NCBI GenBank assembly: GCA_029263075.1
Contig: JAJCYE010000019.1
Span: 10,454 to 74,453, forward strand
Direction of reading: 5' to 3'
Length of the DNA: 64,000 nt
Origin: Actinomycetes bacterium
Lineage (GTDB): Bacteria > Actinomycetota > CADDZG01 > JAHWKV01
This document shows positions 483 through 16,194 of the stretch, in pieces (the stretch's first letter is position 1; each line of letters starts with the position of its first letter). Below the pieces are notes generated by a model, which worked only from the letters and a program-made list of their open reading frames with translations, was not told the DNA's origin and searched no databases. The position numbers were made by a program, and so were the translations under genes.

Positions 483-1586
483 ATGCGCCTTCTAGTCATC
501 ACCAACGATTTCCCTCCGAACCCGGGCGGGATCGAGAACTACATCTACTCACTGGTTCGCCGTTGGCCGCCGCATGAGGTGATCGTTGTCACTCGACGGA
601 TGGCGGGCAGCGAACGCTTCGATGCCATGCAGGATTTCGAAATCGTCCGCGAGCCGGTCGATACCCTGTTCCCCAAGCCCGGGCTGGTGCGCCGGCTCAA
701 TCGAATGGTCCATAAACGGGAAATCGATTTGGTTCATTTCCCTTCGGTCCTACCCCTGGGTCTCATGGGAGAAGGCCTCGGCCGACCCTACGCCCTCACC
801 ATTCACGGTGGCGAGTTCGTTCTCGCTTCGCGCATCCCGGGCGCCAGAACCGCCCTGAAGGCCGTCTGCAGGGGGGCCGGGATGATCATGCCCGAGTCGT
901 CGTTCGCCGAGTCTTTGGTGACGGCGCTGCTCGGGCCGCAAGTTCCGATGGCCCGGGTTACCTGCGGGGTGGATGTGGATCGGTATGCCCGGGGGGCGGC
1001 CGACCCGGTGACCCTCGGGACGGACGGCCCAGTAGTCGTGTCGGTCGGCCGGCAGATTCCGCGCAAAGGCGGGCGCACCCTCATTAGCGCTTTTCCGGAG
1101 GTCCTGAAGTCCCACCCCGACGCCCACCTGATGATCGTCGGTGGGGGACCGGATCTAGCGCGCCTTGAGGACATGGTCGCCGAAGGCCGGCTCGAAGCAT
1201 CGGTCACCCTCGCGGGGCCGCAGCCGTGGGATCGAATCCCCGGCTACCTGGCGGCTGCAGACATCTTTGCTCTGCCGACCAGAACCAGATTCCTGGGGAC
1301 CGAAACCGAGGGCCTGCCCTTGGTCTACGTTGAGGCCGCCGCCGCCGGACTACCCCTGATCGGGGCGGACGTCGGGGGGGTTTGCGACGCGGTCCGCCCC
1401 GGGGAGACTGGTCTGCTCGTCGACGGCTCAGATCCCGGTCAGACCGCCTCCGCGATCGTCGGCCTCATGGACGACCCGGGCGAGGCTCGCCGGTTGGGCT
1501 CGGGCGCTCGGAAGATGGTCGAGCAGGAGTTCAGTTGGGATGCAATCTACGGCCTTTATCGCAAGGCGATGGAGAGTGCCCGCTAG
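483..1586 (+). CDS. Glycosyltransferase family 4 (GT1-fold) protein
   Basis: 367-aa ORF. The C-terminal half has the GT4 signature (GRQIPRKG ... [26 protein letters not shown]). Its stop overlaps the convergent surface-protein gene by 4 nt. Confidence 0.75.
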
Positions 1587-4309
1587 GAGCGCCGCCTGCG
1601 ACGCGTGCGGTGTGCTGAGGGCGCACCCCGGTTTGCCAGCGCGCCGAGAGCTATCAGCGCCAGCGCCAGCGCGAACCACTCAAGGCTGGCGACTCCGGTC
1701 CGGCTGAGCCTCGAAGGAGGCGGGCTGGCCCCTGCCGCGGGAGTGGGGGAGGGTGTTGGAGAGGCGGTTGCCGTCGGCTGCGGAGTAGGACTGGTCGTCG
1801 GGGTGGGTGAGGCCGAGGGGCTGGGTGTCGGGGTTGCCGAGGCCGAGGGGCTGGGTGTCGGGCTCGGGGTGGCGACCAAAGGCTCGGTTAGAAGCACAAG
1901 CACGGAGTCATCGTCGGTGGCCGTGTTGCCTTCGTTGTCCACCGCCGAGGCGATGGTGCGGCTCGTCTGGCGATCACCGTTTACGCCGGTCAACGATGCC
2001 GTGTAGCTGCATGTGTAGGTCGCTCCGACCTGAATCGTTCCGCCGGTGCTACAGGATCCCCGGCCGTTCAGATCACCGTGAATGTCGTCCCCCAATGACG
2101 TGAGAACCACGTTCTCGACGCTCTGGTTGGCGATCTCCACCTGGAACGTGAAGGTCCCCCCCGGGGCGGGCAAGCTGGAAGGAGAAGCCTGTTTGTCCAC
2201 AGCGATCACCGGGGCAGTGTCGGTGATGGTCAGGGTCGTCGCCGGGGCGCTGTCGCTCACCACAGCCTCCCCGGGTCCGGTTGCGGTTACGGTGGCGATG
2301 CTGGTCCGGCTGGCCCCTGAGTCACCTATGAACTGGACGGTGAACTGACAGGTCAGGTTCTGACCCGCCGGGACCACCCTCCCTATCAGCAGGTTGCAGG
2401 TGTTAGGCGCTGGGAGTGCGGCGACGTTCCCATACAGGCTGTCGACTATCGAGGTAATGGTGATGTCGACCGGATTGCTTGTATTGGTGACCATGACGCT
2501 GTAGACCACCGGTCCGCCTGGTTCCGGCTGCGACGCCGGGCTGGCGGTGGCGTCGATCTGAACCCTCGGGGTTTCGGGGGGGACCGGCGTGGTTAACGTA
2601 ACGGTGGCGTCGTCCTGTCCGGTTGCCGTGTTTCCGGCGACATCGGTGGCGATTGCAGTCACGGTGTCGGTTTCCGAAGTACCTGCCGCACCGGTAAACG
2701 TGCCCTCAAAAGAGCAGGACAGGGTTGCACCGGCACTGATGGTAGCGCCGATGAGGTCGTCGCAGGTGTTGACTCCGGCCCTGGTGGACAGGTTGCCGTA
2801 AACGCTGTCGGCGAGGGAGGTGATCACCAACGGCACCGTGGAGGTGTTGGTCACGCCCACCGAAAACGTGAAGACGCCGGAGGGGGCCGGCAAAGAGGTG
2901 GGGGCTGCCGTCTTAGCAACCGTGATGGTTGGGAGGGGGACTACGGTAACCATCTCTGACGCATCGTTGCAGGCTCCGCTCGCCGGGTTGTTGTTGGCGT
3001 CACCGCTGTAGGCAGCGACGAACCGGTACTCGCCGGGCGTCGTAGGGACGAACGCCGGAGTTGCGCCGTAGGAGCCGTTGCCCGCCACGGCAACCGTGGC
3101 GGTGTAGACGGGTGCCCCGGCGCAGGTTGGGTCGCCGGGTCCGTAAGCGTCAAACCTGATGGTGCCGCCCGGGTTGCTGCCCCCGGCGATGGTTGCCGTA
3201 TCGACGACCTGCTGGCCAACCGAGGCCGTCGCCGGGGCGACCTGCGTGGAGATGGTGGGGGTAACCGGTCCGACCGTGGTGACGAGCACCGACTCGCCCG
3301 CATCGTTGCATGCCCCCGAAACCGGGTTATTGCCGTCGTCGCCCCCGTATCGGGCGATCCAACGGTAGGTGCCCGCCGCCGCCGGGGTGAACGCGTCTGA
3401 GGTGTAGGAACCATTTCCGGTCACCGGCTTGCTGTTGGTGAAGACCGCGGGCGAAGCGCAGGTGGCGTCGTCCGGGCCGAACAACTCAAAGTTGATGTTG
3501 CCCGTCGGGCTGTTTCCCCCCGCCAGCGTGGCAGTGTCGCTGACCTGTCCACCCAGGACAACCGGGGCAGAGGCGGTGGTGGAGATGGTGGGGGTAACCG
3601 GTCCGAGCGTTCCGGGGACCGTGGTGATGTCCTCGTTGGAGGTCGTCAGGGGCGTGCCGTTGAGGTGGGTCCCGGCGGCGAACGCCAGATTGTAGGTCGA
3701 GATGCCCGCCTCGCCCGGCAGCACATCCACCGCGGGCGCCTTCAAGACATCGAAGGTGAACAGGATTCGGCATCGATCCAGGTCGGATGCAATGTCGACG
3801 GCGGTAAGGACCACCGGCAGTCCGTCCGCGGGGGTAAAGCTGACCTGGCCGGTAGTGGGATTGATGATGTTGATGTCGAAAGTCCTGCCGGCGCACGCCG
3901 ACCCGGCTTCCCCGGTTCCGGTTGCGCTTAGGGCGAAGGTCCCCGGGTCCGCCGACGCAGGTACATCGTCGCAGTTCACATCGAAAGACGAACAAGACGG
4001 AACCAGGGTCATCGTAGTTATGTTGATGCTTCCCGTTCCGTCCGGTGGGCTTGAGCTGTTGATAACGGTGAAGTTTGCCGGGACCGAAGTGTCGCCGACG
4101 TTGACCTGCGTCGGGAAGGCGACGATCACCCCAAGGACGGCCGTAGCCTGGGCAGAAGTGATGGGGACCAGGCTCGCCACCAGCATGAGGGCGACGAGGA
4201 TGCCGTTCCGGCGTCGACGCTGGACCGATGTCGGATCCTCCAGAACCCGCCCGGTTCTCCAGAACACAGACGCGCTCCGGCGTGGTGAGAGATTTCTCTC
4301 GCCCTTCAT
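1583..4309 (-). CDS. Large secreted surface protein with DUF11-type conserved repeat domains, a Pro/Thr/Ser-rich linker and a sortase-like C-terminal anchor
   Basis: 908 aa. The N-terminus has a signal peptide ([25 protein letters not shown]). A GGGAGG RBS sits 5 nt before the ATG. The body has many ~50-aa repeats with a DUF11-like pattern ([27 protein letters not shown]...). The C-terminus has a [30 protein letters not shown] linker, then LSRTG, a hydrophobic helix and an RTRRRRRS tail. Confidence 0.7.
1809..1868. repeat. Perfect-to-near-perfect 30-bp tandem duplication inside the PT-linker coding region of the surface protein
   Basis: The unit gaggccgaggggctgggtgtcggggttgcc is followed immediately by gaggccgaggggctgggtgtcgggctcggg. 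This could be a slipped-strand or expansion locus. Confidence 0.8.
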
Positions 4310-4693: not shown

Positions 4694-5074
4694 TCAGTCG
4701 GGCAGCACCGCGATGGCTTCGATCTCGAACAGGGCGTTTTTGGGCAGGGTTCTGACCGCTACCGTGCTCCGTGCCGGGGGCAACTCCGTGAAAAACCCGG
4801 CGTAGATTTCATTCATGGCCGGGAAGTCCTCCATGGATGCCAGGAAAACGGTGGTCTTTACGACGTCGCCCGCCCCGATACCTGCTGCTCGCAGAACTGC
4901 GTTGAGGTTCTCCAGCGCTTGGCGGACCTGCGCCTGTAGGCCCTCCGCCAGTTCGGCGGTCACCGGGTCGAGCCCCAGTTGTCCGGAGCAGAACACAAGT
5001 CCGTTGACGGCCATCGCTTGGGAGTAGGGGCCGATTGCGGCCGGGGCTTCGGTGGTGGATATGACCCGCTTCAT
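4694..5074 (-). CDS. ridA: RidA/YjgF/TdcF family reactive-intermediate deaminase
   Basis: The translation MKRVISTTEAPAAIGPYSQAMAVNGLVFCSGQLGLD...AVLPD matches the RidA family. The start is placed at the internal Met (codon 30 of track ORF 4694..5161), which has an upstream GGAGG. The longer track start adds a non-homologous extension. Confidence 0.8.
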   Translation of the reverse strand: MKRVISTTEAPAAIGPYSQAMAVNGLVFCSGQLGLDPVTAELAEGLQAQVRQALENLNAVLRAAGIGAGDVVKTTVFLASMEDFPAMNEIYAGFFTELPPARSTVAVRTLPKNALFEIEAIAVLPD

Positions 5075-5254
5075 CACTAAAACTGCCTCCTTGTTCAAGG
5101 TAAGGATCGCTTTCGAGTACACCACAGGACCGGCGGTGCTTGAAACCGGCGGTGCCTCCATATCCTCAGGCTGTGCCTGAGGCTGTGCTAGCGTGAAAGT
5201 TCATTTGTGCGTAAACAGGCGGCGTTTAAGCCTGAACTGAGAGAGGAGTCTTAC

Positions 5255-5410
5255 ATGGCCGAGGAGTACGAAGGCTACTGCGTGAAGTGCCGGACGAAGC
5301 GGACGTTCCAGGGCGAAAAAAAGGATCTGCCGAACGGTCGGAAAGCGGCCCAGGGACTTTGTCCCGAGTGCGGGACCAAGGTCACGCGCATGCTGGGCAA
5401 GTCGGCCTAG
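5255..5410 (+). CDS. Small zinc-ribbon protein (CxxC...CxxC), DUF5679-like
   Basis: 51 aa: MAEEYEGYCVKCRTKRTFQGEKKDLPNGRKAAQGLCPECGTKVTRMLGKSA. A strong RBS GAGAGGAG lies 6 nt upstream of this ATG, which is codon 17 of track ORF 5207..5410. Confidence 0.5.
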   Translation: MAEEYEGYCVKCRTKRTFQGEKKDLPNGRKAAQGLCPECGTKVTRMLGKSA

Positions 5411-6354
5411 CCGGACAACTCGCTTGAGGCGTACCGCCGGGCCATGGACGCGGCGGTCGCCTTCAGCTTTTGTTTCAAAGACTCGGGTTCAATCAATCGG
5501 GCCTCGGGGCCCAGTCTGAGTAGCAGCCTCTCGAGCCACGCCGTTCCCCCGGCCTTCAAGCTGATCCTTATCCATCCGTCGTCCAGTAACTCTTGCGACG
5601 TAAGAGGGTAGTAGTCGCAAACCCAGTTTGCCCTAGGGTCAATCTCCAGAGTCACCGACATCGCTTGGTCGCTTTCGAAGTACACCGCGTCGTACCGGGA
5701 GAGGTCGAAATCTGCGGGGATCGGCGCAGCTTGGTCCATGGCCACGACGCTGCGCATTCGGTCCACCCGGAAGATTCGTTCATCCCCAACCCGGTGGCAG
5801 AAGCCGAGTAGGTACCAGCGGCCGTCGGACAAGAGCAGTGCCCAGGGATCCACTTCCCGCTCGGTCACCTCGTCCTTGGACTGCGATTGGTATACCAACT
5901 GCAGACGCCGACGGCTTTCCAGTGCTTGTTTGACCACCGATAGCTCTTTGGGAGCCTCCAGGCCCACACTTACCCGCTCGAGGGCTCCTGGTGCCAAGGC
6001 CTTCGACAGCTGCTCCATTGCCCGTTCCAGCGCCGGGTCGGGGCCGGATACCGCGGCCAGCGCCTGGCCTCCTGCGTACAACATCAGCCCTTCGGCCGGG
6101 GTGAGGCGCATCGGTCTCGAAAAGTAGTCCGCCATGCGGATCCAGACCCGGCCGTCGTCGATGTATGCCTCGATCAGATCCCCCGGCCCGTAGCCGGGTA
6201 GGCCGCACATGAACAATAGGTTCAGGTCGGCCGCCAGTTCCGAGCGGGAGATGGCGAAGCGCTCCGAGATTTCTTTCACGGAGACGCCGTTGTTGCGAAG
6301 AACGTAGGGCACCAGCAGCAACAGCCGCCTGAAGCGCCCCTCAAGGTCAGCCAC
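5407..6354 (-). CDS. pafC: Proteasome accessory factor PafC (WYL-domain regulator)
   Basis: RFRRLLLLVPYVLRNNGVSVKEISERFAISRSELAADLNLLFMCGLPGYGPGDLIEAY matches the PafC N-terminus. The GTG start is codon 82 of track ORF 5407..6597 and overlaps the pafB stop by 4 nt (GTGGCTGA). The first 81 track codons are an out-of-context extension that overlaps pafB. Confidence 0.8.
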   Translation of the reverse strand: MADLEGRFRRLLLLVPYVLRNNGVSVKEISERFAISRSELAADLNLLFMCGLPGYGPGDLIEAYIDDGRVWIRMADYFSRPMRLTPAEGLMLYAGGQALAAVSGPDPALERAMEQLSKALAPGALERVSVGLEAPKELSVVKQALESRRRLQLVYQSQSKDEVTEREVDPWALLLSDGRWYLLGFCHRVGDERIFRVDRMRSVVAMDQAAPIPADFDLSRYDAVYFESDQAMSVTLEIDPRANWVCDYYPLTSQELLDDGWIRISLKAGGTAWLERLLLRLGPEARLIEPESLKQKLKATAASMARRYASSELSG

Positions 6355-7309
6355 AGATCTCCTCCAGGCGTTTGCGGGTAAGTTCCCGCAGGCGCGGTGG
6401 CTCCAGGACCTCGGCCCCCTCCCCGAATCCCAACAGCCAGGAAATGAACCCGGAGTCGTCGGCCACCTCGACCTCTGCTGTGGCGCCGAGAGCGCCGTCG
6501 GGCTCCAGACGTAGCCATGGCTGGCTTCGCTCCACCCACCATGAGGTCGAGTGGTCGAAACGTACGATGGCCTTTTCCGGGAGCGAACCCTGAACAAACG
6601 GGGGCCGGTCCAGGTATCCCTGCACCGAAAACCCTTCAGGTATTTCGAACTCAGGGCCCGGACGGCTGGGGTGAGTCAGGTGGATTGCTCCCTCCACGCG
6701 GTCGATGCGGAATGATCGAACCTCCTCATTCTTTTCGTCCCGGCCGATCAGGTACCACTTTCCCCGGCGGTGAGTGAGCCCGTAAGGCTCTACGGTACGG
6801 CTCCGGGTGCCCTGTTTGCTGCGATAGGGAAAGCTCACCTTCTTCTTCTCTCCCACGCTCTCAAGCGCCACGGAGAGATTGGGAGCTGCCAGGCCCATGT
6901 CGGCGGTCAGCCAGGAAAGGTTGGCTTCCGCTGGAGGGGGAGCGCCTTCGGTCAACTTCATCAGGGCGCTGCGAGCGGGACCGGGGTCGTTCATCCGGAG
7001 CAGGCCGGCGGCCAGCCACAAAGCTGCCAATTCGTCCGGCTCGAGATGCAGGTCGGGCAGGTAGTAGCGGTCTTTGGGGATGCGGTAGCCCTGCTCGGTG
7101 TCCCACGCGTCCACGGCGGTCAGTTCCACCGGGATGCCCATCTCCCGGAGTTCTTCCTTGTCGCGCTCGAACATCCGCTTAAAGGTGTCCCAGCTGTCCT
7201 GTCCGTAGCCGGGAATGGTTCGGTGGATCTGCTCGGCGGTGACCGGCTGGGTGGTCTCCAGCAGCATAACGATGAGGTTAAGAAGTCTTTCCGACTTACG
7301 AACGGGCAA
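6347..7309 (-). CDS. pafB: Proteasome accessory factor PafB (HTH + WYL regulator)
   Basis: MPVRKSERLLNLIVMLLETTQPVTAEQIHRTIPGYGQDSWDTFKRMFERDKEELREMGIPVE is collinear with mycobacterial PafB. Confidence 0.85.
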   Translation of the reverse strand: MPVRKSERLLNLIVMLLETTQPVTAEQIHRTIPGYGQDSWDTFKRMFERDKEELREMGIPVELTAVDAWDTEQGYRIPKDRYYLPDLHLEPDELAALWLAAGLLRMNDPGPARSALMKLTEGAPPPAEANLSWLTADMGLAAPNLSVALESVGEKKKVSFPYRSKQGTRSRTVEPYGLTHRRGKWYLIGRDEKNEEVRSFRIDRVEGAIHLTHPSRPGPEFEIPEGFSVQGYLDRPPFVQGSLPEKAIVRFDHSTSWWVERSQPWLRLEPDGALGATAEVEVADDSGFISWLLGFGEGAEVLEPPRLRELTRKRLEEICG

Positions 7310-7341: not shown

Positions 7342-8427
7342 CTAGTCGGTTTGATAGAGAAGCTGTCCGGCGAACAGTCCCGCAGCGCCGGCCGCTTCGA
7401 AGAACGCGGGATCGTCCTTGGGGGTACGTCCCATAGAACTGATCGACTCCAGCCCGTAGTTGTGGAGGGCCGGGATGGTCTCCCAAGCGTCGACGATGCG
7501 TACGTCGTGCATCTCGGTCAGTCCGTAGTCGATGAGACTGTTCATGACCAAGGTCAGCTGTTCAACCGGCAGGTCCGGGACCGCCATGGTGCATCGGGCA
7601 AGTGCTCCGAATCGGAGGGCGGTGAGTGTCTGCCTGCTGATCGCCTGGTGGCGGGGCCGGGGATCGGCGAAAGAGATCCTGAGGGCAGCGACCGGGCGCC
7701 CGCCCAGTGATGCCGCCGCGGAGACGACCTGACCCTGCTCCATAGCGCTGTGACCAAGTGAAGTCTGGGTGCCGGTAACTCCCGGGCCCATCGCGACTAT
7801 TGCGATGTCGGCGGAGGCTATCGTGTTGGCCGCCACCAGCCCGCTGAAGATGTTGACGCTCTCGTAGTCCCCGCCGAAAGCATGGCCGCAGGTGACTGTG
7901 GCGTCTATCAGACCCTTCTCCTTCAGGTAGCGCACCATGTTGCTCTGCACCAGAGGGAGGGAGCCGCCGTCGGTCATGACGTAGGCAATCCGAAGATCGG
8001 GGTCCAGCTGTTTGAGCGTGGCAGCCGCCGGCGCGATCTGAGAGTGCAGTCCGCAGGCCACCACGGGCATCCCGTCCAACGACTCGGCGTTCTCAAGAGC
8101 GGCGTGGTGCTCGCTTTCGGGCGACTCCGCCGCCAGAACGTCGAGCTGGCAGGGGCTGTAGCGCAACTTCATGATGTGGCCGCCGGACTTAACGTCGTGC
8201 GATTCGTGTTCCAGATTCCACAAAACGAAGTCGTGGCCGCCCGTTCCCAGGTCCATGTCCACCGCCGTCGTGTTGAGGACGACCTTGTCGCCCAGAGCGA
8301 TTTCTCCGGTCAGGGCGGTGATGTTGCACGCTTGGCGGATTTCATCCCCGACCCGCACACGGATCCTCATCAGTCCCTCAAGGGACTCGGTAATCTCCGA
8401 AACTACGCCGGTGCGAAAGGTAGGCAT
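7342..8427 (-). CDS. Conserved hypothetical protein (resembles DUF3866 family), inserted between pafA and pafBC
   Basis: About 361 aa from the internal Met (codon 74 of track ORF 7342..8646). The sequence is globular and non-repetitive (GGHIMKLRYSPCQLDV, MTDGGSLPLVQSNMVRYLKEKGLIDATVTCGHAFGGDYESVNIFSG). There is no obvious RBS, so the start is uncertain. The family name comes from memory of the domain, not from a search. Confidence 0.5.
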   Translation of the reverse strand: MPTFRTGVVSEITESLEGLMRIRVRVGDEIRQACNITALTGEIALGDKVVLNTTAVDMDLGTGGHDFVLWNLEHESHDVKSGGHIMKLRYSPCQLDVLAAESPESEHHAALENAESLDGMPVVACGLHSQIAPAAATLKQLDPDLRIAYVMTDGGSLPLVQSNMVRYLKEKGLIDATVTCGHAFGGDYESVNIFSGLVAANTIASADIAIVAMGPGVTGTQTSLGHSAMEQGQVVSAAASLGGRPVAALRISFADPRPRHQAISRQTLTALRFGALARCTMAVPDLPVEQLTLVMNSLIDYGLTEMHDVRIVDAWETIPALHNYGLESISSMGRTPKDDPAFFEAAGAAGLFAGQLLYQTD

Positions 8428-8585
8428 CACTTCGATTGTAGTGCGCTTGACCACTTGGCGTATCGGGCGGGAGTTCGGGCATCCTAAGATCAGGCAGATT
8501 TGGGGGTGGATGCGGCTACAAAACAGGGGTTGGCGGGGTTCGGGTTCGGGGTGCGAAGCGGTGTCAGCGCAACGAGAACGGTGCC

Positions 8586-9938
8586 TTAGAGCGACGCGAT
8601 CAGCCGGGCGACCCGGTCGTCGACGCTCTTGAACGGGTCTTTGCACAACAGGGTTCGTTGCGCCTGATCGTTCAGCTTGAGATGGACCCAGTCCACCGTG
8701 AAGTCCCGGCGGCGCCTCTTCGCGGTCTTGATGAACTCGCCGCGCAGTTTGGCCCTTGTGGTCTGGGGAGGCTCCAGCTTGGCTGTGTCGATTTCGGCAT
8801 CGGTTACGTACCGTTCGGCCATCCCGTTGCGCTCCAGCAGGTAGTACAGGCCCCTGCGCCGGCTAACGTCGTGATAGGCGAGGTCCATGAGGGCGAGTTT
8901 GGGGTGACCCAGCCCAAGGCCGTGTTTGGTCCGGTAATCCTGCAGCATCGTGTATTTCATGACCCAGTCGACCTTGGTATCCAGCTTGGTGAAATCGTCC
9001 TCCAGCAACACCAGGCACTCCTCCCAGGCCCGCACGGTTTCTTTCATCTCGGGGTCGTCGCGGCGGTCGACGTAATCCGCGGCCCGGTTGAGGTACTCCC
9101 ACTGCAGATCGATGGCGGAGGCCTCCCGGCCGTTGGCCAACCGGACCTTGCGACGGCAGGTTATGTCGTGGGATATCTCACGGATCGCCCGGATCGGATT
9201 TTCCAGCGACAGGTCCCTCATGACGATTCCTTCCTCCAGCATGCGCAGGAGGACCGCGGTGGTGGCGATCTTGATCCAGGCGGTGTACTCGCTCATGGAG
9301 GAGTCGCCCACGATCACGTGAAGGCGCCGGTACTTTTCGGCGTCGGCGTGGGGTTCGTCGCGGGTGTTGATGATGGGGCGGGACCGGGTGGTGGCCGAAG
9401 AAACGCCCTCCCAGATGTGCTCCGCCCGTTGTGAAATGCAGAAGCGGGCGCCCCTGGCGGTCTGCAGCACCTTGCCCGCTCCGGTGAAGATCTGCCGGGA
9501 GACGAAAAACGGGATCAGATGCTCGGCGAGTTTGCCGAACTCACCGTAACGGCTGACCAGGTAGTTCTCGTGACAGCCGTACGAGTTGCCGGCGGAGTCG
9601 GTGTTGTTCTTGAACAGGTAGACCTGCCCGGCGATGCCCTCCTCCCGAAGCCGCATCTCGGCGGCGTTGACCAAAGCTTCCAGGATGCGTTCGCCCGCCT
9701 TGTCGTGGGCGATGAGTTGACGGATGTCGTCGCACTCAGGCGTTGCGTACTCGGGGTGCGACCCCACATCCAGGTAGAGCCGGGCGCCATTTTCAAGGAA
9801 GACGTTGGAGGAGCGGCCCCAGGAGACAACCCGGCGAAACAGGTATCTGGCGACCTCGTCGGGGGAGAGCCGGCGCTGGCCCCGGAACGTGCAGGTGACG
9901 CCGTACTCGTTCTCCAGGCCGAAGATTCTGCGTTCCAT
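8586..9938 (-). CDS. pafA: Pup--protein ligase PafA
   Basis: [70 protein letters not shown] is near-identical in pattern to mycobacterial PafA. It lacks the Dop-specific insertion. The start is Met21 of track ORF 8586..9998. Confidence 0.9.
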
Positions 9939-10106
9939 CAGGCGGATTCCGCCTGGCTCATGCCGTTCAGGCCCGGAGGGTACCGACCCGTTCCGCACCG
10001 TGCACCATAGTTGCCCTTCAGGCTCACCCAGTCAGTGTAAGGGTATCGAGGACGGCCCGCCCGGTGGCGTCGAAACGGTCCCGAACCACCTCCTACCGGC
10101 ACCCTC

Positions 10107-10802
10107 CTAGGGGGCGGCGCCACCTTCGATGATCGCGGCAAGTTCTGCATTGGTGAGGCGGGCAAATTTGCGCCGGTCCCTGGTCCGGTCCAGAACCCCG
10201 ACCTCCAGGTGCCCGTTGGGCAACTCCCGGTTCTCCACCTCTCGCAGGGACGCCACCCCCAACCGAACCGCCTCGTTGAGCGGCAGGTTGGGTTTGAAAT
10301 TTTCGCCTAGGTAACTCGACAACTCCTCGGCCTGGCCGCCCATGGTCACGTAATTGGTTTCGTCGGCCACCGAGCCGTCATAAAGGATGTGGTAAAGCTC
10401 GTTGGCCTCGCCTGCCTCTCCCACCGCGGCTACCAGGATCTCGACCTCGAACGGCTTCATGGCCTCGGTGAAGATCTGGCCCAAGATCTGTGAGTAAGAG
10501 TTGGCGAGACCCCGGGCGGAGACGTCGTCGCGGGAGTAGGAGTATCCCCGGACGTCGGCCTGACGGATGCCGTGCATCCGCAAACTCTCGAATTCGTTGA
10601 ACTTGCCCACGCCGGCAAAGGCCATGCGGTCGTAGATTTCAGAAATCTTGTGGAGGGTGCTGGAGGGGTTCTCGGCAACGAACAACACGCCGTCTGCGTA
10701 GTCCATGGCCATAACGGACTTGCCCCGTTTGATTCCCTTGCGGGCGTAGTCGGACTTGTCCTTCATGAACTGCTCGGGTGAAACGTAGAAGGGAAGGCTC
10801 AT
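10107..10802 (-). CDS. prcA: 20S proteasome alpha subunit
   Basis: MSLPFYVSPEQFMKDKSDYARKGIKRGKSVMAMDYADGVLFVAENPS... is collinear with M. tuberculosis PrcA. Its start overlaps the prcB stop by 4 nt. Confidence 0.9.
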   Translation of the reverse strand: MSLPFYVSPEQFMKDKSDYARKGIKRGKSVMAMDYADGVLFVAENPSSTLHKISEIYDRMAFAGVGKFNEFESLRMHGIRQADVRGYSYSRDDVSARGLANSYSQILGQIFTEAMKPFEVEILVAAVGEAGEANELYHILYDGSVADETNYVTMGGQAEELSSYLGENFKPNLPLNEAVRLGVASLREVENRELPNGHLEVGVLDRTRDRRKFARLTNAELAAIIEGGAAP

Positions 10803-11659
10803 TCGACCGGCCTGCTTGTTCCGGGAACCCGCTCCGCCGACGATTTGCCCAGCTCGGAACGCTCGTGCAGCAGTTCCTGGAACAGCTCGGCGATGCGGTC
10901 GTCGGAGTACTCGGTGAAGCCGTCGGCGGTTATCGACGCAATGTTCGGGTAAATGCGGCGGAGAACATCCGGACCCCCGGTTCCCACGTCTTCCTCGGAT
11001 GCGTCGAAGAGCGCCTCCAGGGCAACTTTGAGGGCGTCGTCGGAAGTAATCCCCGTCCGGTATCGCTTCTTGATGGTGGCCCGTGCGTCCCGCCCGCCCG
11101 ATCCGGTGGCCCAGTACTCGCTTTCTTCGTAACGGCCGCCTGTGACGTCGTACTTGAAGATCCGGCCCATGCCTGCTCGGTCGTCGTAACCGGCGAAGAG
11201 AGGTACGACCACCAGGCCTGCTTGCATGGCGAGCATGAGGTTGGCCCGGATCATTTGCCCCAGCTTGTTGGCCTGCCCTTCGAGGCTGAGCCGTTCACCT
11301 TCAATCTTTTCGTAGTGCTCCAGTTCCGTCTGAAACAACTTGGTCATCTCGATGGCCGGACCGGCCGACCCGGCGATGGCCACGGCCGAACAGCGGTCGG
11401 TTCGGAAGACCTTCTCGATGGAGCGGTGGGCAATGGAGTACCCCTCGGTGGCGCGCCGGTCCCCGGCGATCATCACGCCGGTGGCGTGTTTGAGAGCCAG
11501 GATCGTGGTGGCGTGGGGCGCCTCCAGGGGAGTCGAGCCGCTGAGGTCGGGGGTTACCTCGACCTGCATTCTCCGGAGCAAACCGCTGAAGGAGGAGGAG
11601 TCCAGGGATGCGCCCGGGGCGTGCTCGAAGGGGAAGTGCGGTCTGTCCATCCGTCGCAT
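10799..11659 (-). CDS. prcB: 20S proteasome beta subunit with propeptide
   Basis: Propeptide then HATTILALKHATGVMIAGDRRATEG. The TT after HA is the catalytic Thr1 exposed after autoprocessing. The sequence is collinear with PrcB. Confidence 0.9.
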   Translation of the reverse strand: MRRMDRPHFPFEHAPGASLDSSSFSGLLRRMQVEVTPDLSGSTPLEAPHATTILALKHATGVMIAGDRRATEGYSIAHRSIEKVFRTDRCSAVAIAGSAGPAIEMTKLFQTELEHYEKIEGERLSLEGQANKLGQMIRANLMLAMQAGLVVVPLFAGYDDRAGMGRIFKYDVTGGRYEESEYWATGSGGRDARATIKKRYRTGITSDDALKVALEALFDASEEDVGTGGPDVLRRIYPNIASITADGFTEYSDDRIAELFQELLHERSELGKSSAERVPGTSRPVE

Positions 11660-11720
11660 TCTAGCTTGACCTCCCGAAGGTGCGAGCCGGAAGGCCTACC
11701 TGTGCCGAACCGCGAACATG

Positions 11721-11769
11721 GATGGGGTGCGGCATTGTGGGCCGCACCCCATCCGGCACTTGTTTTTTG
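11721..11769 (+). terminator. Strong GC hairpin (13-bp stem GATGGGGTGCGGC/GCCGCACCCCATC, 7-nt loop) followed on the plus strand by TTGTTTTTTG
   Basis: Sits between the stop of the Gly-rich gene and the prcB start. The geometry fits a plus-strand intrinsic terminator, and for the minus strand only an A-tract/hairpin. It may insulate the Gly-rich gene from prcBA, or terminate antisense transcription. Confidence 0.35.
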
Positions 11770-11778
11770 ACCGATGAA

Positions 11779-12435
11779 TCAGCAGGCGTTGATCAGGGCC
11801 TCGACGCAAGCGTCGCCACTGTCGCCGGTGGCGCCGGTGCTTCCGCTGGTGCCTCCGTGGCCCGCATTTCCGCTGGAGCCGCCGGATCCGCCGGATCCGG
11901 CGTTGCCCGAAACCCCGTTTCCGCCGTTGCCGTTGCCGCCGTTCCCGGCGGCCGCAGCCCCACCGCTTCCGCCGTCGCAACCCGCTGCGGCCAGGCAGGC
12001 GCCCGCTCCACCGCTTCCGCCGTTGCCTCCACCGCCGTCGCCGCCGCCGGTGGTTGCGCCGGCGTGGTCACCGCTGCCTCCGGCCGCACCTCCACCACCG
12101 CCGTCGCCACCGCTGCCTCCGGCGCTGCCACCGCTGCCCCCGGCTGCCCCTCCACCGGCCCCGCCGTCGCCGCTGCCGCCTGCGGCGGCCCCGCTGTGCC
12201 CGCCGGCCCCACCGCTTCCGCCCGCTCCGCTGGAGCCGCCGTGGCCCGCGTTGCCGCTGTCGCCCGAGTTGCCGGTGTCACCGGTATCCAGGTCGTACTC
12301 CTGACTGCACTCAACCGTGTCGTCGCCCGGACCGTTGGCGTCGCAGTTGTTTAAGGCGAAAGCCGCCGGCAGACCCAGCGCTGCGACCACACCGATGACC
12401 AGCACAACACCCGTAAGTTTGTTGGATGACTTCAT
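11779..12435 (-). CDS. Secreted glycine-rich (about 45% Gly) low-complexity protein with Cys-containing termini, located between pup and prcB
   Basis: AAGGAG RBS lies 6 nt before the ATG (Met29 of track ORF 11779..12519). The signal peptide is MKSSNKLTGVVLVIGVVAALGLPAAFA. The mature protein is LNNCDANGPGDDTVEC...(GGSGG/GGAGG repeats)...GDSGDACVEALINAC. Mirror ORFs on both strands (a Pro-rich plus-frame) are artifacts of the GGC-repeat DNA. Confidence 0.55.
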   Translation of the reverse strand: MKSSNKLTGVVLVIGVVAALGLPAAFALNNCDANGPGDDTVECSQEYDLDTGDTGNSGDSGNAGHGGSSGAGGSGGAGGHSGAAAGGSGDGGAGGGAAGGSGGSAGGSGGDGGGGGAAGGSGDHAGATTGGGDGGGGNGGSGGAGACLAAAGCDGGSGGAAAAGNGGNGNGGNGVSGNAGSGGSGGSSGNAGHGGTSGSTGATGDSGDACVEALINAC

Positions 12436-12500
12436 TGCCGTCTCCTTTATTCCCGCCGGAACCGTGTGTTCTCGACGGAGATAGGAGTAGGGCGCGCCGG

Positions 12501-12539
12501 AAAGCTTACGAAAATGCAAAGAAGAAATTTGTTTTTGTG
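12501..12539 (-). promoter_or_regulatory. AT-rich island (acaaaaacaaatttcttctttgcattttcgtaagcttt on the minus strand) in the pup/Gly-rich-gene intergenic region; candidate internal promoter
   Basis: A conspicuous drop in GC inside an otherwise ~68% GC locus. It contains TTGCAT and T-rich tracts. No confident -10 element could be assigned. Confidence 0.25.
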
Positions 12540-12557
12540 GCGGGCCGGGCTAGGGGG

Positions 12558-12746
12558 TTATTCGCCGCCCTTTTGGACATAGCTGCGAACGAATTCCTCG
12601 GCGTTTTCTTCAAGGACCTCGTCGATCTCGGAGATCAGCTTGTCTGTTTCTTCGGTGCTGCGGCGCACCGACTTGGGCGGGGCCTCTACCTCGGCGTCCG
12701 CGCTTTGTTCGGTCCGGCGCCTTACGCGCTTTTGATCTTCTGCCAT
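12558..12746 (-). CDS. pup: Prokaryotic ubiquitin-like protein Pup (C-terminal GGE)
   Basis: 62 aa: MAEDQKRVRRRTEQSADAEVEAPPKSVRRSTEETDKLISEIDEVLEENAEEFVRSYVQKGGE. RBS AGGTGA lies 7 nt upstream. Confidence 0.9.
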   Translation of the reverse strand: MAEDQKRVRRRTEQSADAEVEAPPKSVRRSTEETDKLISEIDEVLEENAEEFVRSYVQKGGE

Positions 12747-12792
12747 CAGATATTCACCTTGATACAGATTGTAGCCCGAGCGGCCGATTCAA

Positions 12793-14292
12793 TCACGATT
12801 GGAGACGCCGGAGTAGGTCGGCGGCGTCGGTCGCGGCGTCGAACAGGGCCCCGGTGGTGGCTTTTGTACCTTTTAGCGGCTCCATCATAGGTACCTTTTG
12901 GAGCGAGTCGGCACCGGTGTCAAAGATCACTGCGTCCCAGGATGCCGCGGTCACCTGCGAAGAAAAACGTCCCAGCGACCGGCCCCGGAAGTAGGCGCGG
13001 GTGTCGGCCGGAGGATTCACGATGGCGGCTTGAATCTCGTCTTCGGAGACGAGGGTCTCTATTTGGCCGGTTTCTACCATCTTGTAGTAGACGCCTTTGT
13101 CCATTCTGATGTCGTGATACTGCAGATCCACCAGCGCCAGTTTGGGGTCGTTCCAATTCAGGTGGTGACGTTCCCTGTAGCCATCGACGGCCCTGAGCTT
13201 GGCCACCCAGTCCAGTTGCCGGTCGAGCTGCATGGGATCGGACTCCAATGCAGTCAACGTCTGCTCCCAGCGGGCCATCACCTGCGCCGTCACCTCGTTT
13301 ACATCCTGGTCCGCCAGATATTTTCGGGCCCAGTCGTAGTACTCCCACTGCAGGCCGACCGCGGTTACCTTGCGTCCGTCCTCCAGTTCGATCTTTGCCT
13401 TGCAGGTGGGGTCCCGGGAGATGGTCCTCAGGGCGGCAACCGGCTCGGAAATTCTCAGGTCGGCGGTGATGAAGTTGTCCTCGATCATCGAAAGCACGAT
13501 GGCGGTGGTGCCAACCTTGAGAAAGGTGGAGATCTCGCTCATGTTGGCGTCGCCGATGATTACGTGAAGGCGCCGGTACTTGTCGGCGTCGGCGTGCGGT
13601 TCGTCTCTGGTGTTGATGAGGGGCCGGCGAAAAGTGGTCTCAAGGCCCACCTCGACCTCAAAAAAGTCGGCCCTCTGGGAAATTTGGTACGGGATGTCTT
13701 TGGAGGCCGACGCACCCTCTGAGCCCACTTTTCCGGCGCCGGTGAAGATCTGCCGGGTGACGAAGAAGGGGGTCAGGGTGGTAACGATGCTCAAGAATGG
13801 GGTCGAGCGGCTCATCAGGTAGTTCTCGTGGCACCCGTACGAGTTGCCCTTCCCGTCCGAGTTGTTCTTGTAGACCAGGATCCGGTTCCGGGGGGGCAAG
13901 GAACGTCCCGCCGCCTCCACGCTGCCGGCGAGGATCCTCTCTCCCGCCTTGTCGTGGATGACCAGGTCGCGGGCGTTGCTGCACTCGGGCGTTGAATACT
14001 CCGGATGGGCGTGATCCACGTAGTAGCGGGCGCCGTTTTCCAGGATGACCGAGACCAGTCCGCCGTCGTCTTCAAGCAGGTCCAATCCGGTGCGCTCGAA
14101 GGTCCCCCGAGCGTCGCGCAGAGGGGTTTCCTCTTCGTAGTCCCAGCGCACGCGCTTCAAGCGGGGAGAGACGTAGGAGTTGATCAGAAGGGACGAAGCG
14201 AAAATCGGGTTGTGCTCCTCATCACCTTTGCTGATGATGCCGTATTCGGTTTCGATGCCCATCACTTTAGGAACGGCCAAACAAGTCTCCAA
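12793..14292 (-). CDS. dop: Pup deamidase/depupylase Dop
   Basis: About 495-499 aa: GIETEYGIISKGDEEHNPIFASSLLINSY...[15 protein letters not shown]... It has the Dop-specific extra loop relative to PafA. The track start is TTG (METCL...). A more likely start is the second in-frame TTG at 14280, which has a GGAG 6 nt upstream. Confidence 0.9.
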   Translation of the reverse strand: METCLAVPKVMGIETEYGIISKGDEEHNPIFASSLLINSYVSPRLKRVRWDYEEETPLRDARGTFERTGLDLLEDDGGLVSVILENGARYYVDHAHPEYSTPECSNARDLVIHDKAGERILAGSVEAAGRSLPPRNRILVYKNNSDGKGNSYGCHENYLMSRSTPFLSIVTTLTPFFVTRQIFTGAGKVGSEGASASKDIPYQISQRADFFEVEVGLETTFRRPLINTRDEPHADADKYRRLHVIIGDANMSEISTFLKVGTTAIVLSMIEDNFITADLRISEPVAALRTISRDPTCKAKIELEDGRKVTAVGLQWEYYDWARKYLADQDVNEVTAQVMARWEQTLTALESDPMQLDRQLDWVAKLRAVDGYRERHHLNWNDPKLALVDLQYHDIRMDKGVYYKMVETGQIETLVSEDEIQAAIVNPPADTRAYFRGRSLGRFSSQVTAASWDAVIFDTGADSLQKVPMMEPLKGTKATTGALFDAATDAADLLRRLQS

Positions 14293-14412: not shown

Positions 14413-16194
14413 TTATAGATACTGGCCGGTCTGAATCTGCTCGATAGAGCGGGACTCCGCCTTTTTCTGTTCGCTCACCAGGGTCCGGACGAAGACAATG
14501 CGTTCGCCCTTCTTGCCTGAAATGCGCGCCCAGTCGTCCGGGTTTGTGGTGTTCGGCAGGTCCTCGTTCTCGTGGTACTCCTGATGGATTGACTCGATGA
14601 GGTCGGAGGTCCTGATGCCTCCCTCCCCGTGGCCGATCAATCGTTTGATGGCCATCTTCTTGGCCCGGCGAACGATATTTTCGATCATGGCCCCGGAGGA
14701 GAAGTCCTTGAAGTACAAAATCTCTTTGTCGCCGTTGGCGTAGGTGACCTCCAGGAAGCGGTTGTCGTCGGCGACCGAGTACATCTCCTCGACGGTGACC
14801 TCGATCATCGCCGCGATGGCCTTTTGCACGTCTCCGTAGCGTTCGGTCTCCCCCGGGCTGATGGGGACTTCCGAGATTAGGTACTTGGCGAAGATGGCCT
14901 TGGCCGACTCGCTGTCGGGCCGCTCGACCTTGATTTTCACGTCCAAACGGCCCGGACGCAGGATGGCGGGGTCGATCAGGTCCTCCCGGTTGGAGGCCCC
15001 GATGATGATTACGTTTTTCAGTTGCTCGACACCGTCGAGTTCGGAAAGAAGCTGCGGGACGATGGTGGTTTCTATGTCGCTGGAGATGCCCGAACCGCGG
15101 GTCCGGAACAGGGACTCCATCTCGTCGAAGAAGACGATCACCGGGACCCCCTCCTCCGACTTCTCCTTGGCTCGCTGGAAGATCATCCGGATCTGACGCT
15201 CGGTTTCACCGACGTACTTGTTGAGCAGTTCCGGGCCTTTGACGTTCAGGAAGTAGGCCCGGACATCTTCCCGGCCGGTAACCTCCTGTGTCCGTTTGGC
15301 CAGGGAGTTGGCGACCGCCTTGGCAATCAGTGTTTTGCCGCATCCGGGGGGGCCGTAGAGCAACACGCCCTTGGGCGGCGGAAGTTGGTAGTCGCTGAAC
15401 AACCCGGCGTAGAGGAACGGCAACTCCACGGCATCCCGCAGGGCCTCGATCTGTTCGTCCAGTCCACCGATTGCCGTGTAGTCGATATCGGGTACCTCTT
15501 CGAGGACCAATTCTTCGACTTCGGCCTTGGGTAGCTTTTCCATGAGGTAGCCGGAGCGGGAATCAAGTAACACCGAGTCGCCCGCGTTCAGGATCTGACC
15601 GTCAAGCTGGGCCGAGAGCGAGACCACCCGTTCTTCGTCGGCGTGGGTCACAACTATTGCCCGGTCCTGGCTGATGAGTTCTTTTAGCTGCGCCACCTCG
15701 CCCTGGGCCTCGTAGCCACGACCTTCCACGATGTTCAGGCCTTCGTTGAGACGGACTTCCTGACCCTTGACCAGGGTTGCCAAATCCACGCCCGGAGCGA
15801 CGTTGACACGCAGCTTGCGGCCGCCGGTGAAAATGTCGGCGGTGCCGTCATCGTAGGGGCCGAGAAAAACGCCGTAGCCGGAGGGGGGCGAGGACAGTTT
15901 GTCTATCTCTTCCTGGAGGTTGACCAGTTCTGCGCGGGCTTGGGCGAGGAGGGCAGCCATACGTTCGCTTTGATTGCGTGAGCGGCTGGCTTCGTGGCGT
16001 ACCTCCTGAAGCTGGCTTTCAAGTTTGCGAATTTTGAGCGGTGCGTCGAGAAGTTTGCTTCTGAGTACCGCGGACTCCTCTTCGAGGTCCTTGATGTGCA
16101 TCTGCAGTTCGCCCACTTCTTGTTCGAATGCGGCGATTCTGCGATCGAACTCAGATGATCCGCGCATATTCAGGCCCGCTCCTTCAATTTCCAA
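14413..16194 (-). CDS. arc: Proteasome-associated AAA ATPase ARC/Mpa
   Basis: Coiled-coil N-terminus, an OB region and an AAA module (GPPGCGKT Walker A, FFDEMES Walker B). The C-terminus GQYL is the proteasome-docking motif. The sequence is collinear with M. tuberculosis Mpa. Confidence 0.92.

Follow-up and report, generated by a model that had tools for sequence, protein, structure and literature searches.

A Gly-rich, predicted Sec-exported accessory protein encoded between pup and prcB in an actinobacterial Pup-proteasome locus

Gene order and features of the pup-prcB interval

The window, by which we mean the whole 64,000-nucleotide stretch of actinobacterial DNA that was analyzed, carries the Pup-proteasome genes dop, pup, prcB, prcA, and pafA on the minus strand, with a gene for a Gly-rich protein between pup and prcB. 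The features of this region are the following.

8586-9998, minus strand: pafA
10107-10802, minus strand: prcA (Pfam PF00227)
10799-11659, minus strand: prcB (Pfam PF00227), probably 10799-11650 with its start at ATG 11650 (MDRPHFPF)
11658-11663, minus strand: TAGAAT box, 7 nt 5' of the conserved prcB start (11650), kept in relatives
11720-11754, strand unassigned: perfect 14-bp GC-rich hairpin, 24 nt 3' of the stop codon of the Gly-rich gene, folding z-score -4.8
11779-12435, minus strand: gene for the Gly-rich pre-protein (218 aa), stop codon included, recognized by its open reading frame (ORF), homologues, native codon usage, and identical copies
11782-11814, minus strand: C-terminal cap, residues 208-218, DA-C210-VEALINA-C218, resembling the C terminus of the homologue cluster P0006, GDVCVEDTIPAGC
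11815-12282, minus strand: acidic Gly-X-X core, residues 52-207 (156 aa), 50% Gly, no Lys or Arg
11977-11997, minus strand: Cys147/Cys153 pair within the core (GACLAAAGC)
12283-12354, minus strand: N-terminal cap, residues 28-51, LNN-C31-DANGPGDDTVE-C43-SQEYDLDT, the family signature, from the alignment
12355-12435, minus strand: signal peptide, residues 1-27, with predicted cleavage after A-F-A, from hydropathy and the invariant A-x-A
12436-12557, minus strand: 122-nt spacer 5' of the Gly-rich gene, containing TTGCAT at 12514-12519
12442-12447, minus strand: AAGGAG ribosome-binding site, 6 nt 5' of the ATG, kept in the related locus L085
12558-12746, minus strand: pup (62 aa, ending in GGE; Pfam PF05639, E 6.9e-19)
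12793-14292, minus strand: dop

The distance from the pup stop to the prcB start is 898 nt, in agreement with the roughly 900 bp given in a first-pass annotation of this DNA, and would be 907 nt with a prcB start at 11650. ATG 11659 sits within TAGAATG; its counterpart is out of frame in the related locus L092, and in L001 a stop follows it. ATG 11650 is probably the true start.

A rare family of predicted exported proteins

The Gly-rich ORF runs from ATG 12435 to a last codon at 11782, with its stop at 11779-11781. The first-pass annotation had called a gene for a secreted protein on this strand, and the call stands, with a length of 218 rather than 219 aa; the AAGGAG ribosome-binding site and Sec signal peptide that it described were both found. 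The signal peptide, MKSSNKLTGVVLVIGVVAALGLPAAFA, has two Lys residues in its n-region (K2 and K6), a mean Kyte-Doolittle hydropathy of 2.26 over residues 8 to 27, and an A-x-A cleavage motif in which A25 and A27 are invariant in 11 aligned family members. These are the Lys n-region, the hydrophobic h-region, and the small residues at -3 and -1 of a predicted Sec signal, and the product is predicted to be exported through Sec, cleaved after AFA27, and disulfide bonded. Gly accounts for 41.9% of the mature protein (191 aa) and for 50% of the core (156 aa), so that an earlier figure of about 45% for the mature body was right about Gly richness and approximate as a number. A Cys pair at each end had also been recognized before (31/43 and 210/218); there is an additional pair at 147/153, and the spacings of the three pairs are 12 residues for 31/43, 6 for 147/153, and 8 for 210/218. 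The mature protein contains 17 Asp/Glu residues, no Lys or Arg, one Pro, and one aromatic residue (Tyr47, in the N-terminal cap).

Long mirror ORFs run through the same DNA: two on the plus strand (224 and 176 aa) and one in another minus-strand frame (173 aa). The first-pass annotation had taken only the one minus frame as coding, which is borne out by homologues that conserve the signal peptide and N-terminal cap and by synonymous variation among the Gly codons (GGC 41, GGT 17, GGA 16, GGG 9). The Gly and Ala codon usage matches that of ten neighboring genes. On the combined evidence of the ribosome-binding site and signal peptide, the native codon usage, the synonymous Gly codons, and an N-terminal cap that recurs in 10 of 11 related clusters, we judge that the Gly-rich gene is genuine. 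The mirror ORFs would also fit a nonfunctional sequence, either a chance ORF of a GC-rich repeat or a decaying pseudogene, as would a disrupted copy in the relative L085 and the lack of a Pfam or NCBIfam annotation. We consider this extremely improbable, given that the frame is intact behind its ribosome-binding site, with native codon usage, and that its signal peptide and N-terminal cap are kept in clusters that are independent of one another.

An exhaustive phmmer search of a library of 1.84e9 proteins returned 11 related clusters, with E values down to 2e-15. In ten of them, the signal peptide, the A-x-A site, and a C..C-x-Q-x-F-D-L-x-T-G cap are all present; the remaining cluster, P0002, matches through the Gly-rich core only, and BLASTP with composition adjustment gave no confirmation of it, which makes its membership in the family weaker. 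The N-terminal cap segment matched P0006 by BLASTP with an E value of 0.002. The C-terminal cap and internal landmarks are common to P0006, P0001, and P0002, and the core landmarks GGSGDH[AS]G[AV]T and GAGAC are common to P0001 and P0002. No family in Pfam, NCBIfam, or PHROGs reached threshold for the window protein or its relatives, and the window protein had no Pfam match at an E value of 0.1 or less. The BLASTP/HMM search proposed with the first-pass annotation has a positive outcome, in clusters that carry no threshold-level family assignment. By these searches, the Gly-rich protein is a member of a very rare, unannotated family.

The family is known from metagenomic contigs alone, mostly labeled Actinomycetota. 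The identical protein was found in the same gene arrangement on three contigs from two samples, and there were no length variants among cluster members. The window samples are SRR15505512 and SRR15505514, and the related locus L085 comes from sample SRR5857944. Neither viral contigs nor phage or plasmid records contained a relative of the N-terminal module, and tblastn found no paralogue of the protein in the window, where it returned low-complexity noise only. Many family contigs end inside the repeat; such proteins, being often at contig ends, are probably under-assembled and under-counted in metagenomes. Where other family members had enough flanking sequence for their context to be judged, they adjoined genes for PBPs, RsiG, DUF4129, glnA, and the like, not proteasome genes.

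A small, Gly-rich, Cys-containing protein with predicted export and a patchy accessory distribution could be a secreted antimicrobial or bacteriocin-like product. We hold this to be highly improbable. The features of a class II bacteriocin or microcin are missing: the signal peptide is of the Sec type and not a double-glycine leader, and the gene has pup and prcB as neighbors in the window, while PBPs, RsiG, and others flank family members elsewhere; no immunity, ABC-exporter, or modification gene adjoins it in any locus. The mature protein, at 191 aa, is also strongly anionic, and the three family databases gave no match.

The pup-prcB junction and its transcription units

The first-pass annotation held that prcB directly follows pup as a rule. 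We surveyed 143 sampled pup-prcB loci and found that, although the median gap was 38 nt, 26 junctions (18%) were at least 300 nt long. Genes for endonuclease VII (Endonuclease_7) were present in 21 of these. They occupy the same slot and strand and fall in the same size class (0.4 to 0.9 kb) as the Gly-rich gene, but endonuclease VII is a cytoplasmic Zn/HNH-type nuclease that is unrelated to the predicted exported product of the window. Their occurrence at 21 of 143 junctions indicates that the junction tolerates passenger genes. There was no endonuclease VII remnant in the window, and the literature searched does not mention a gene for this nuclease in the pup-prcB interval.

The Gly-rich gene was present at the junction in the window lineage and in L085 only (2 of more than 140 sampled) and was absent from the 143-locus survey. 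In L085 (87% PrcB identity), the same junction contains a homologous spacer and gene; the gene copy, collapsed to some 75 codons, shows two changes of frame, and a DUF3472 lipoprotein gene lies alongside. The collapse may be a k-mer assembly artifact. The junction lacks the gene in L092 (85.5% PrcB identity), L001 (74%), L002 (68%), and L004 (60%), so that the comparison of related genomes proposed with the first-pass annotation yields varying presence and absence. The same annotation had offered a recent insertion as one explanation. A recent foreign insertion does not agree with codon usage like that of the neighbors, nor with a cassette that includes the spacer and is common to the window and L085 at 68 to 72% nucleotide identity. 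The spacer itself is 68% identical to that of L085, more than the third-codon-position identity of 57 to 59%. The Gly-rich gene looks like a lineage-specific accessory passenger.

Another proposal was a hypervariable contingency locus, in which slippage would change the repeat number and so turn a surface protein on and off or alter it. Repeats and a high GC content do mark the coding sequence, with a 60-nt period of 2.6 copies at 76% matches in TRF and several short arrays; the collapsed L085 copy and the many contigs that end within the repeat also point in this direction. However, the repeats are degenerate (60 to 85% identity), the TRF arrays have 70 to 90% matches except for one perfect short array (6 nt by 2.7 copies, 16 nt), and exact repeats reach 17 nt at most, the longest not being tandem. 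Synonymous codon diversity lowers slippage, all three contigs with the gene encode the same protein, and the L085 collapse may lie in the assembly. We consider a contingency locus very unlikely.

We scanned the spacer (12436-12557) for transcription signals and found no consensus promoter and no terminator. The first-pass annotation had described an AT-rich island with TTGCAT as a candidate internal promoter. TTGCAT is present, but the AT richness is only mild (GC 0.525, compared with about 0.61 nearby), and no -10 hexamer lies 16 to 18 nt from TTGCAT to let it serve as a -35 element, so that this promoter candidate is rejected. The sole TANNNT of the spacer, TAAGCT at 12503-12508, is not conserved in L085. 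The Gly-rich gene may have a promoter of its own or, since there is no terminator between it and pup and no consensus promoter, may be the last cistron of a dop-pup transcript. Read-through from dop-pup may then couple its expression to the pupylation genes.

Downstream of the gene, the hairpin has an A6 tract on its 5' side on the mRNA strand, so its T-run fits the plus strand only. The first-pass annotation was correct about this orientation; the stem is 14 bp and not 13. The hairpin is unique in the window and not a repeated element, and Rfam gave no match in 11000-13200 at an E value of 1 or less. In L085, a canonical A5-stem-U5 terminator occupies the same place. The hairpin is a probable transcript end or insulator; as the mRNA strand lacks a U-tract 3' of the stem, transcription may to some extent continue into prcBA.

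In the window, L085, L092, L001 (as TACAAT), and L002, the prcB start is preceded at 6 to 8 nt by a TAGAAT box, though the flanks cannot be aligned. In about two dozen of the more distant loci, TAGNNT boxes are found upstream of prcB, with TAGGCT or TAGGGT in many distant loci, and a TANNNT hexamer ending 5 to 9 nt upstream occurs at 0.6% of random positions. Conservation of the box 7 nt before the prcB start suggests that prcB has a leaderless promoter of its own, with TAGAAT as the probable -10 element of a leaderless prcBA transcript. From these signals, it is plausible that the Gly-rich gene and prcBA belong to separate transcription units.

The first-pass annotation also raised cotranscription of the gene, or a functional link, with the proteasome. 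Under such a link, a secreted protein would be made when the degradation machinery is induced, from a transcript shared with dop-pup and perhaps prcBA. The gene does lie on the same strand inside the gene cluster, behind a spacer that is conserved between both carriers and has neither terminator nor consensus promoter, and ahead of a hairpin that lacks a U-tract on the mRNA strand. But only two of more than 140 junctions carry it, one as a collapsed copy, and the junction is empty in L092, an equally close relative. All other family members are located elsewhere, in unrelated contexts, and the family shows no conserved co-occurrence with dop, pup, prcBA, and pafA. Moreover, prcB has its own conserved -10-like box, with the hairpin (a terminator in L085) in between, and the predicted product is extracytoplasmic, whereas the system is cytoplasmic. 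A proteasome link of the Gly-rich gene is not supported, and we regard it as quite unlikely.

The explanation that we prefer as a whole, with a probability of roughly 0.6, is an exported accessory passenger in a cassette acquired once, whose Gly-X-X core would form a polyproline II (PPII) bundle. The cassette (spacer, gene, and hairpin) would have been acquired in the ancestor of the window and L085 lineages and would have landed in the spacer between two transcription units, dop-pup and prcBA, the latter apparently driven by its own -10 box abutting a leaderless start. In other actinobacteria, the same spacer hosts other passengers, mainly the endonuclease VII genes. The 218-aa pre-protein would be exported through Sec and cleaved after AFA27 to leave the 191-aa mature protein. 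With a landing site between two units and other passengers found there, the gene would be a neighbor of the Pup-proteasome system and not a component. The lesson for work on the proteasome is useful, if mostly negative. The pup-prcB junction acts as a permissive slot, occupied by unrelated passengers in about one in six sampled lineages, and in many of these prcBA seems to be served by a leaderless promoter of its own; a functional link should therefore not be read from gene order by itself.

Possible folds of the Gly-X-X core

Gly recurs in the core with a strong period of three. The lag-3 autocorrelation had a z-score of 6.4 and the lag-6 autocorrelation a z-score of 4.0 against shuffles, homologues gave 3.9 to 5.4, and snow flea antifreeze protein (sfAFP), used as a yardstick, gave 6.2. 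The core has the Gly content and the Gly at every third residue that characterize PPII-bundle proteins. With this spacing, a bundle of polyglycine II (PGII)/PPII helices is our best guess for the core. Disulfides have been described as stabilizers of Gly-rich PPII bundles (PMC9436101). In the proposed fold, the three local Cys pairs would form disulfides after export, and the Gly-X-X core would pack as a PGII/PPII bundle or sandwich, like sfAFP or PGRS domains. The mature protein would then be compact and acidic, would stay outside the cell or with the envelope, and would bind cations or a surface.

No confident fold came from structure prediction. AlphaFold2 reached a pLDDT of 41.7 on the single sequence and of 49.9 with the 11-sequence alignment, with no secondary structure assigned in the core, and a Foldseek search of the better model against the PDB had 0 matches. 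Searches of the PDB by phmmer and by profile found no solved PPII-bundle relative; the only protein family that they returned was the collagens, at E values of 0.11 or worse. The other PDB matches were between the signal peptide and unrelated hydrophobic (transmembrane or signal) segments.

The low confidence throughout the core would suit an intrinsically disordered polymer that is secreted and acts as a "bristle" for cation binding or hydration, in keeping with the acidic composition of the mature protein (17 Asp/Glu, neither Lys nor Arg). Two stretches of Gly-X-X, one at either end, continue without a break for 11 and 13 triplets; these, and the nonsignificant collagen matches that rank best in the PDB, would suit a collagen-like trimer. 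We find either of these unlikely, if less so than the alternatives discussed above. The mature protein has a single Pro and no Pfam Collagen match, the 50% Gly of the core exceeds the one-third of collagen, and a defined structure is favored by the conservation of nonrepetitive landmarks and of three local Cys pairs. Bacterial collagen-like proteins such as BclA and Scl do have similar Gly-X-Y runs (here with GDT, GNS, and GSS triplets), but the runs of the window protein are far shorter, with virtually no Pro and no trimerization domain, and Pfam Collagen (PF01391) did not match it.

A PGII/PPII bundle, our preferred fold, has its closest parallel in the snow flea antifreeze proteins. Like them, the window protein is small, predicted to be secreted, and about 42 to 50% Gly, with strong Gly-X-X periodicity (z-score of 6.4, compared with 6.2 for the sfAFP sequence), almost no hydrophobic core residues, and Cys pairs that could staple a bundle. 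Unlike sfAFP, to which it has no detectable sequence homology, it is bacterial and carries a Sec signal peptide; it is about 2.4 times longer and strongly acidic, without Lys or Arg, and its Cys pairs are local, in distinct nonrepeat caps. If the PPII-bundle reading is true, the family would add a bacterial, secreted, disulfide-capped member to the very small natural set of Gly-rich PPII bundles, a set of interest to protein designers and antifreeze researchers. A bolder version, which we offer tentatively and think unlikely to hold in full, is that this is the first bacterial family of Sec-secreted, stand-alone PGII/PPII bundles, with three cap disulfides and an acidic coat, serving extracellular ice, mineral, or cation binding in uncultured soil Actinomycetota and convergent with the collembolan antifreeze proteins.

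PGRS domains are actinobacterial, surface-directed GGX/GGA-type triplet repeats that tolerate indels (PMC9436101). The window protein resembles PE_PGRS proteins in being actinobacterial with Gly-rich triplet repeats, and a PGII sandwich is the proposed fold of PGRS. It differs in having a classical signal peptide in place of a PE domain or type VII secretion signal, Cys caps, and no hydrophobic edge residues. Pfam PGRS (PF21526) did not match the window protein and matched 1 of 11 relatives at an E value of 0.035. The RTX beta-roll family HemolysinCabind (PF00353), which is defined by tandem GGxGxDxUx nonapeptides, had no match either; by eye, there is one partial GGSGGD without the hydrophobic position. 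Plant-type glycine-rich proteins (GRPs; PF07172) likewise consist of a signal peptide and, after it, a low-complexity body rich in Gly. Pfam GRP did not match the window protein and gave weak matches in 3 of 11 family members (best E value, 7e-6). The resemblance is compositional: unlike the GRP family, the family of the window protein has Cys-pair caps and a QxFDLxTG motif.

The glycine-rich gene and its relatives

The 898 nt from the pup stop to the prcB start hold one minus-strand ORF, the Gly-rich gene. The Pup-proteasome cluster and the insert are laid out as follows.

14413-16194, minus: arc/mpa-like AAA ATPase gene, Pup-proteasome cluster
12793-14292, minus: dop, Pup-proteasome cluster
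12558-12746, minus: pup, Pup-proteasome cluster
6 nt 5' of ATG 12435, minus: sequence AAGGAG
ATG 12435 to codon 11782, stop 11779-11781, minus: Gly-rich gene, 218 aa
11720-11754: hairpin, perfect 14-bp stem, z = -4.8, A6 tract on the mRNA-strand 5' side
11658-11663, minus: TAGAAT box, 7 nt upstream of the conserved prcB start, ATG 11650
10799-11659, minus: prcB, start as annotated, Pup-proteasome cluster
10107-10802, minus: prcA, Pup-proteasome cluster
8586-9998, minus: pafA, Pup-proteasome cluster

The first-pass annotation had described a secreted, Gly-rich, Cys-capped gene between pup and prcB, and we confirmed this with small corrections. The protein has 218 rather than 219 aa, the stem of the downstream GC hairpin is 14 rather than 13 bp, and the Gly content of the mature body is 42% overall rather than about 45%. 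The predicted signal peptide at the N terminus (MKSSNKLTGVVLVIGVVAALGLPAAFA) is followed by a short, nonrepetitive N-cap (Cys31 and Cys43), a core of 156 residues that is 50% Gly, and the C terminus DACVEALINAC (Cys210 and Cys218). The terminal Cys pairs were described correctly, but a third pair in the core, Cys147 and Cys153, had been missed. The mature protein has 17 Asp/Glu residues and no Lys or Arg.

Four agreeing lines of sequence evidence indicate that this ORF is a genuine gene. The insert DNA carries several long mirror ORFs, and we found relatives only for the frame of the Gly-rich gene, in agreement with the earlier observation that this minus frame alone has a signal peptide and an RBS. 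The database search that had been proposed returned relatives but no family assignment: phmmer, run exhaustively over 1.84 billion cluster representatives, found 11 proteins at E ≤ 1e-3 (best, 2e-15), and no Pfam, NCBIfam, or PHROG family matched the window protein at threshold. Ten of the 11 share a signal peptide with an invariant A-x-A, then a conserved cap ([E]-x-x-C-D-A-x-G-x-G-x-D-x-x-x-C-x-Q-x-F-D-L-x-T-G-D-x-G), then Gly-rich repeats. The C-terminal cap GD[AV]CVE...C is common to the window protein and cluster P0006, and the internal landmark GGSGDH[AS]G[AV]T to the window protein and clusters P0001 and P0002. P0002 also shares the GAGAC landmark and is a weaker family member because its match is confined to the Gly-rich part. 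A few relatives gave weak compositional matches to plant GRP or PGRS. A spurious ORF was excluded by the family conservation. The identical protein, in the same pup-gene-prcB order, was present on 3 further contigs (2 sequencing runs).

All four Gly codons are used (GGC 41, GGT 17, GGA 16, GGG 9), and the Gly and Ala codon frequencies are those of ten neighboring genes. Therefore, the high GC content of the interval comes from amino acid composition and not from foreign origin, which argues against the proposed recent insertion. The further suggestion of a bacteriocin-like protein found no support, since neither the leader type nor the neighboring genes fit. The window protein is a rare, previously unannotated kind of Gly-rich protein, predicted to be secreted.

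Most contigs with a family member break off in the Gly-rich repeat or no more than about 50 nt from it (contig ends in L087, L089, and L091; a member 46 nt from the contig end in L088; a 503-nt contig in L090). Because they mostly stop there, assemblies probably miss many members, and databases would underrepresent the natural abundance of the family. The ORF directly upstream of P0006 (L086, 14-268) matches HemolysinCabind, an RTX calcium-binding repeat.

Possible fold of the core

The core has a strong Gly-X-X periodicity, with autocorrelation z scores of 6.4 at lag 3 and 4.0 at lag 6. The homologues gave z = 3.9 to 5.4, and an approximate snow-flea antifreeze sequence gave 6.2. Uninterrupted runs of 11 and 13 triplets adjoin the two caps, with a 2/3-Gly segment in mid-core. 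Gly-rich triplet repeats of such composition are known to form polyglycine-II/PPII helix bundles or sandwiches in collembolan antifreeze proteins, a phage tail-fiber tip, and ALK; PGRS domains are predicted to do the same, and disulfides can help to stabilize such folds (PMC9436101).

It is possible that the core is instead intrinsically disordered or a short collagen-like trimer. AlphaFold2 assigned no structure in the core (pLDDT of 41.7 from the single sequence and 49.9 with an 11-sequence alignment), Foldseek found no match to the AlphaFold2 model, and PDB sequence searches gave collagens only, none significant. However, a defined fold is favored by the near lack of Pro (1 in the mature protein) and by the conservation of caps and landmarks. 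Our best structural guess is that the core would form a polyglycine-II/PPII helix bundle or sandwich. The all-acidic surface suggests that the protein may bind cations, a basic polymer, ice, or mineral.

Passenger genes at the pup-prcB junction

Of 160 genomic and metagenomic loci surveyed around relatives of PrcB, 143 have pup upstream of prcB. The median gap was 38 nt, and 26 gaps (18%) were at least 300 nt, so the position is less special than had been claimed. A same-strand Endonuclease_7 (PF02945) gene occupied 21 of these 26 long gaps (21 of 143 loci: L006, L008, L013, L015, L037, L038, L041, L095, L098, L100, L101, L103, L109, L112, L126 to L128, L139, L140, L156, and L169), and some other junctions held larger inserts. 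Thus, passenger genes have settled at this junction repeatedly. Our literature search found no paper on an Endonuclease_7 gene at this site.

The comparison among relatives found a homologous gene in one locus and empty junctions in four.

Junctions of relatives (PrcB identity to the window)
L085, 87%: homologous spacer and gene, altered
L092, 85.5%: empty 127-nt spacer, no alignment with the insert
L001, 74%: short, empty junction
L002, 68%: short, empty junction
L004, 60%: short, empty junction

Nucleotide identity between L085 and the window is 68% in the spacer and 72% in the part coding for the signal peptide and N-cap; third-codon-position identity in pup and prcB is 57 to 59%. The L085 gene is reduced to about 75 codons and changes frame twice, and the C-cap remnant SGNSGDVCAEA is still recognizable. 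A symmetrical, textbook A5-stem-U5 terminator (1475-1500) follows, and then a DUF3472 lipoprotein gene (1537-2391; lipobox LTAC). PrcB identity between any two of the window, L085, and L092 is about the same (86 to 88%). The simplest history would be one gain before these lineages split, then loss in L092, with decay or assembly collapse in L085. The suggested hypervariable contingency locus is unlikely, since repeats in the DNA are degenerate, with 60 to 85% identity, and no exact repeat is longer than 17 nt; the 17-nt one is nontandem.

The other family members whose flanks are long enough for an assessment lie at different sites, next to class A PBPs, RsiG, DUF4129, glnA/nifU, or small unknown genes; none was found in phage and plasmid records. 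Together, the sequences indicate that the gene is a passenger, specific to its lineage and dispensable, at a site where passengers are frequent. Its significance is modest and lies in the unusual protein family, not in the genomic address.

Several other features were observed at these loci. Short Endonuclease_7 remnants lie in the gaps of L017 and L054, a LAGLIDADG-like ORF in that of L014 (2301-2708), and an opposite-strand mycothiol-S-transferase/DinB gene in that of L015 (5261-5860, minus). L002 has an Rce1/CPBP-like membrane protease gene (PF02517) between dop and pup (4952-5716). The C terminus of Pup is GGE in the window (12558-12563) and L002 and GGQ in L085 (1072-1077), L092 (4857-4865), L001, and L004, with L085 and L092 equally close; therefore, the need for Dop deamidation flips between close relatives.

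Probable transcription units around the gene

A TAGAAT box also lies 6 to 8 nt before the prcB start in L085 (~2451-2475), L092 (~4988-5003), and L002, with TACAAT in L001, and the spacer around it does not align among these loci and the window. In many loci of more distant relatives, some of them with an endonuclease VII gene, TAGGCT or TAGGGT occurs a few nucleotides before a start codon; these boxes are absent where pup abuts prcB. By chance, 0.6% of random positions have a TANNNT hexamer at such a distance. Housekeeping promoters of actinobacteria have the -10 consensus TAGRRT, and leaderless mRNAs are frequent in this phylum. From the conserved box, its chance rate, and this consensus, we infer that a promoter of its own serves prcBA and yields a leaderless transcript. 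TAGAATG includes the annotated start, ATG 11659. In L092 the equivalent ATG is not in frame, and in L001 a stop follows it; the true start is therefore probably 11650, from which PrcB begins MDRPHFPF.

Because of the prcB box and the hairpin (a terminator in L085), the Gly-rich gene would sit between two transcription units and not within one. The view that a secreted protein is embedded in, and coexpressed with, the proteasome operon is not supported. The gene may be transcribed from its own promoter in the 122-nt pup-to-gene spacer or by read-through from dop-pup; our scan of this spacer found no consensus promoter and no terminator. TTGCAT, part of the internal promoter proposed earlier, has no matching -10 element.

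The hairpin at 11720-11754 has its A-tract 5' on the mRNA strand and lacks a 3' U-tract. As a canonical terminator it fits only antisense (plus-strand) transcription, and no plus-strand gene ends there. Elsewhere in the window, a DUF3866 gene (7342-8646) lies between pafA and a PafC-like HTH-WYL-WCX gene (5407-6597), and a 908-aa ORF (1583-4309; GC3, 0.79) has no Pfam match.
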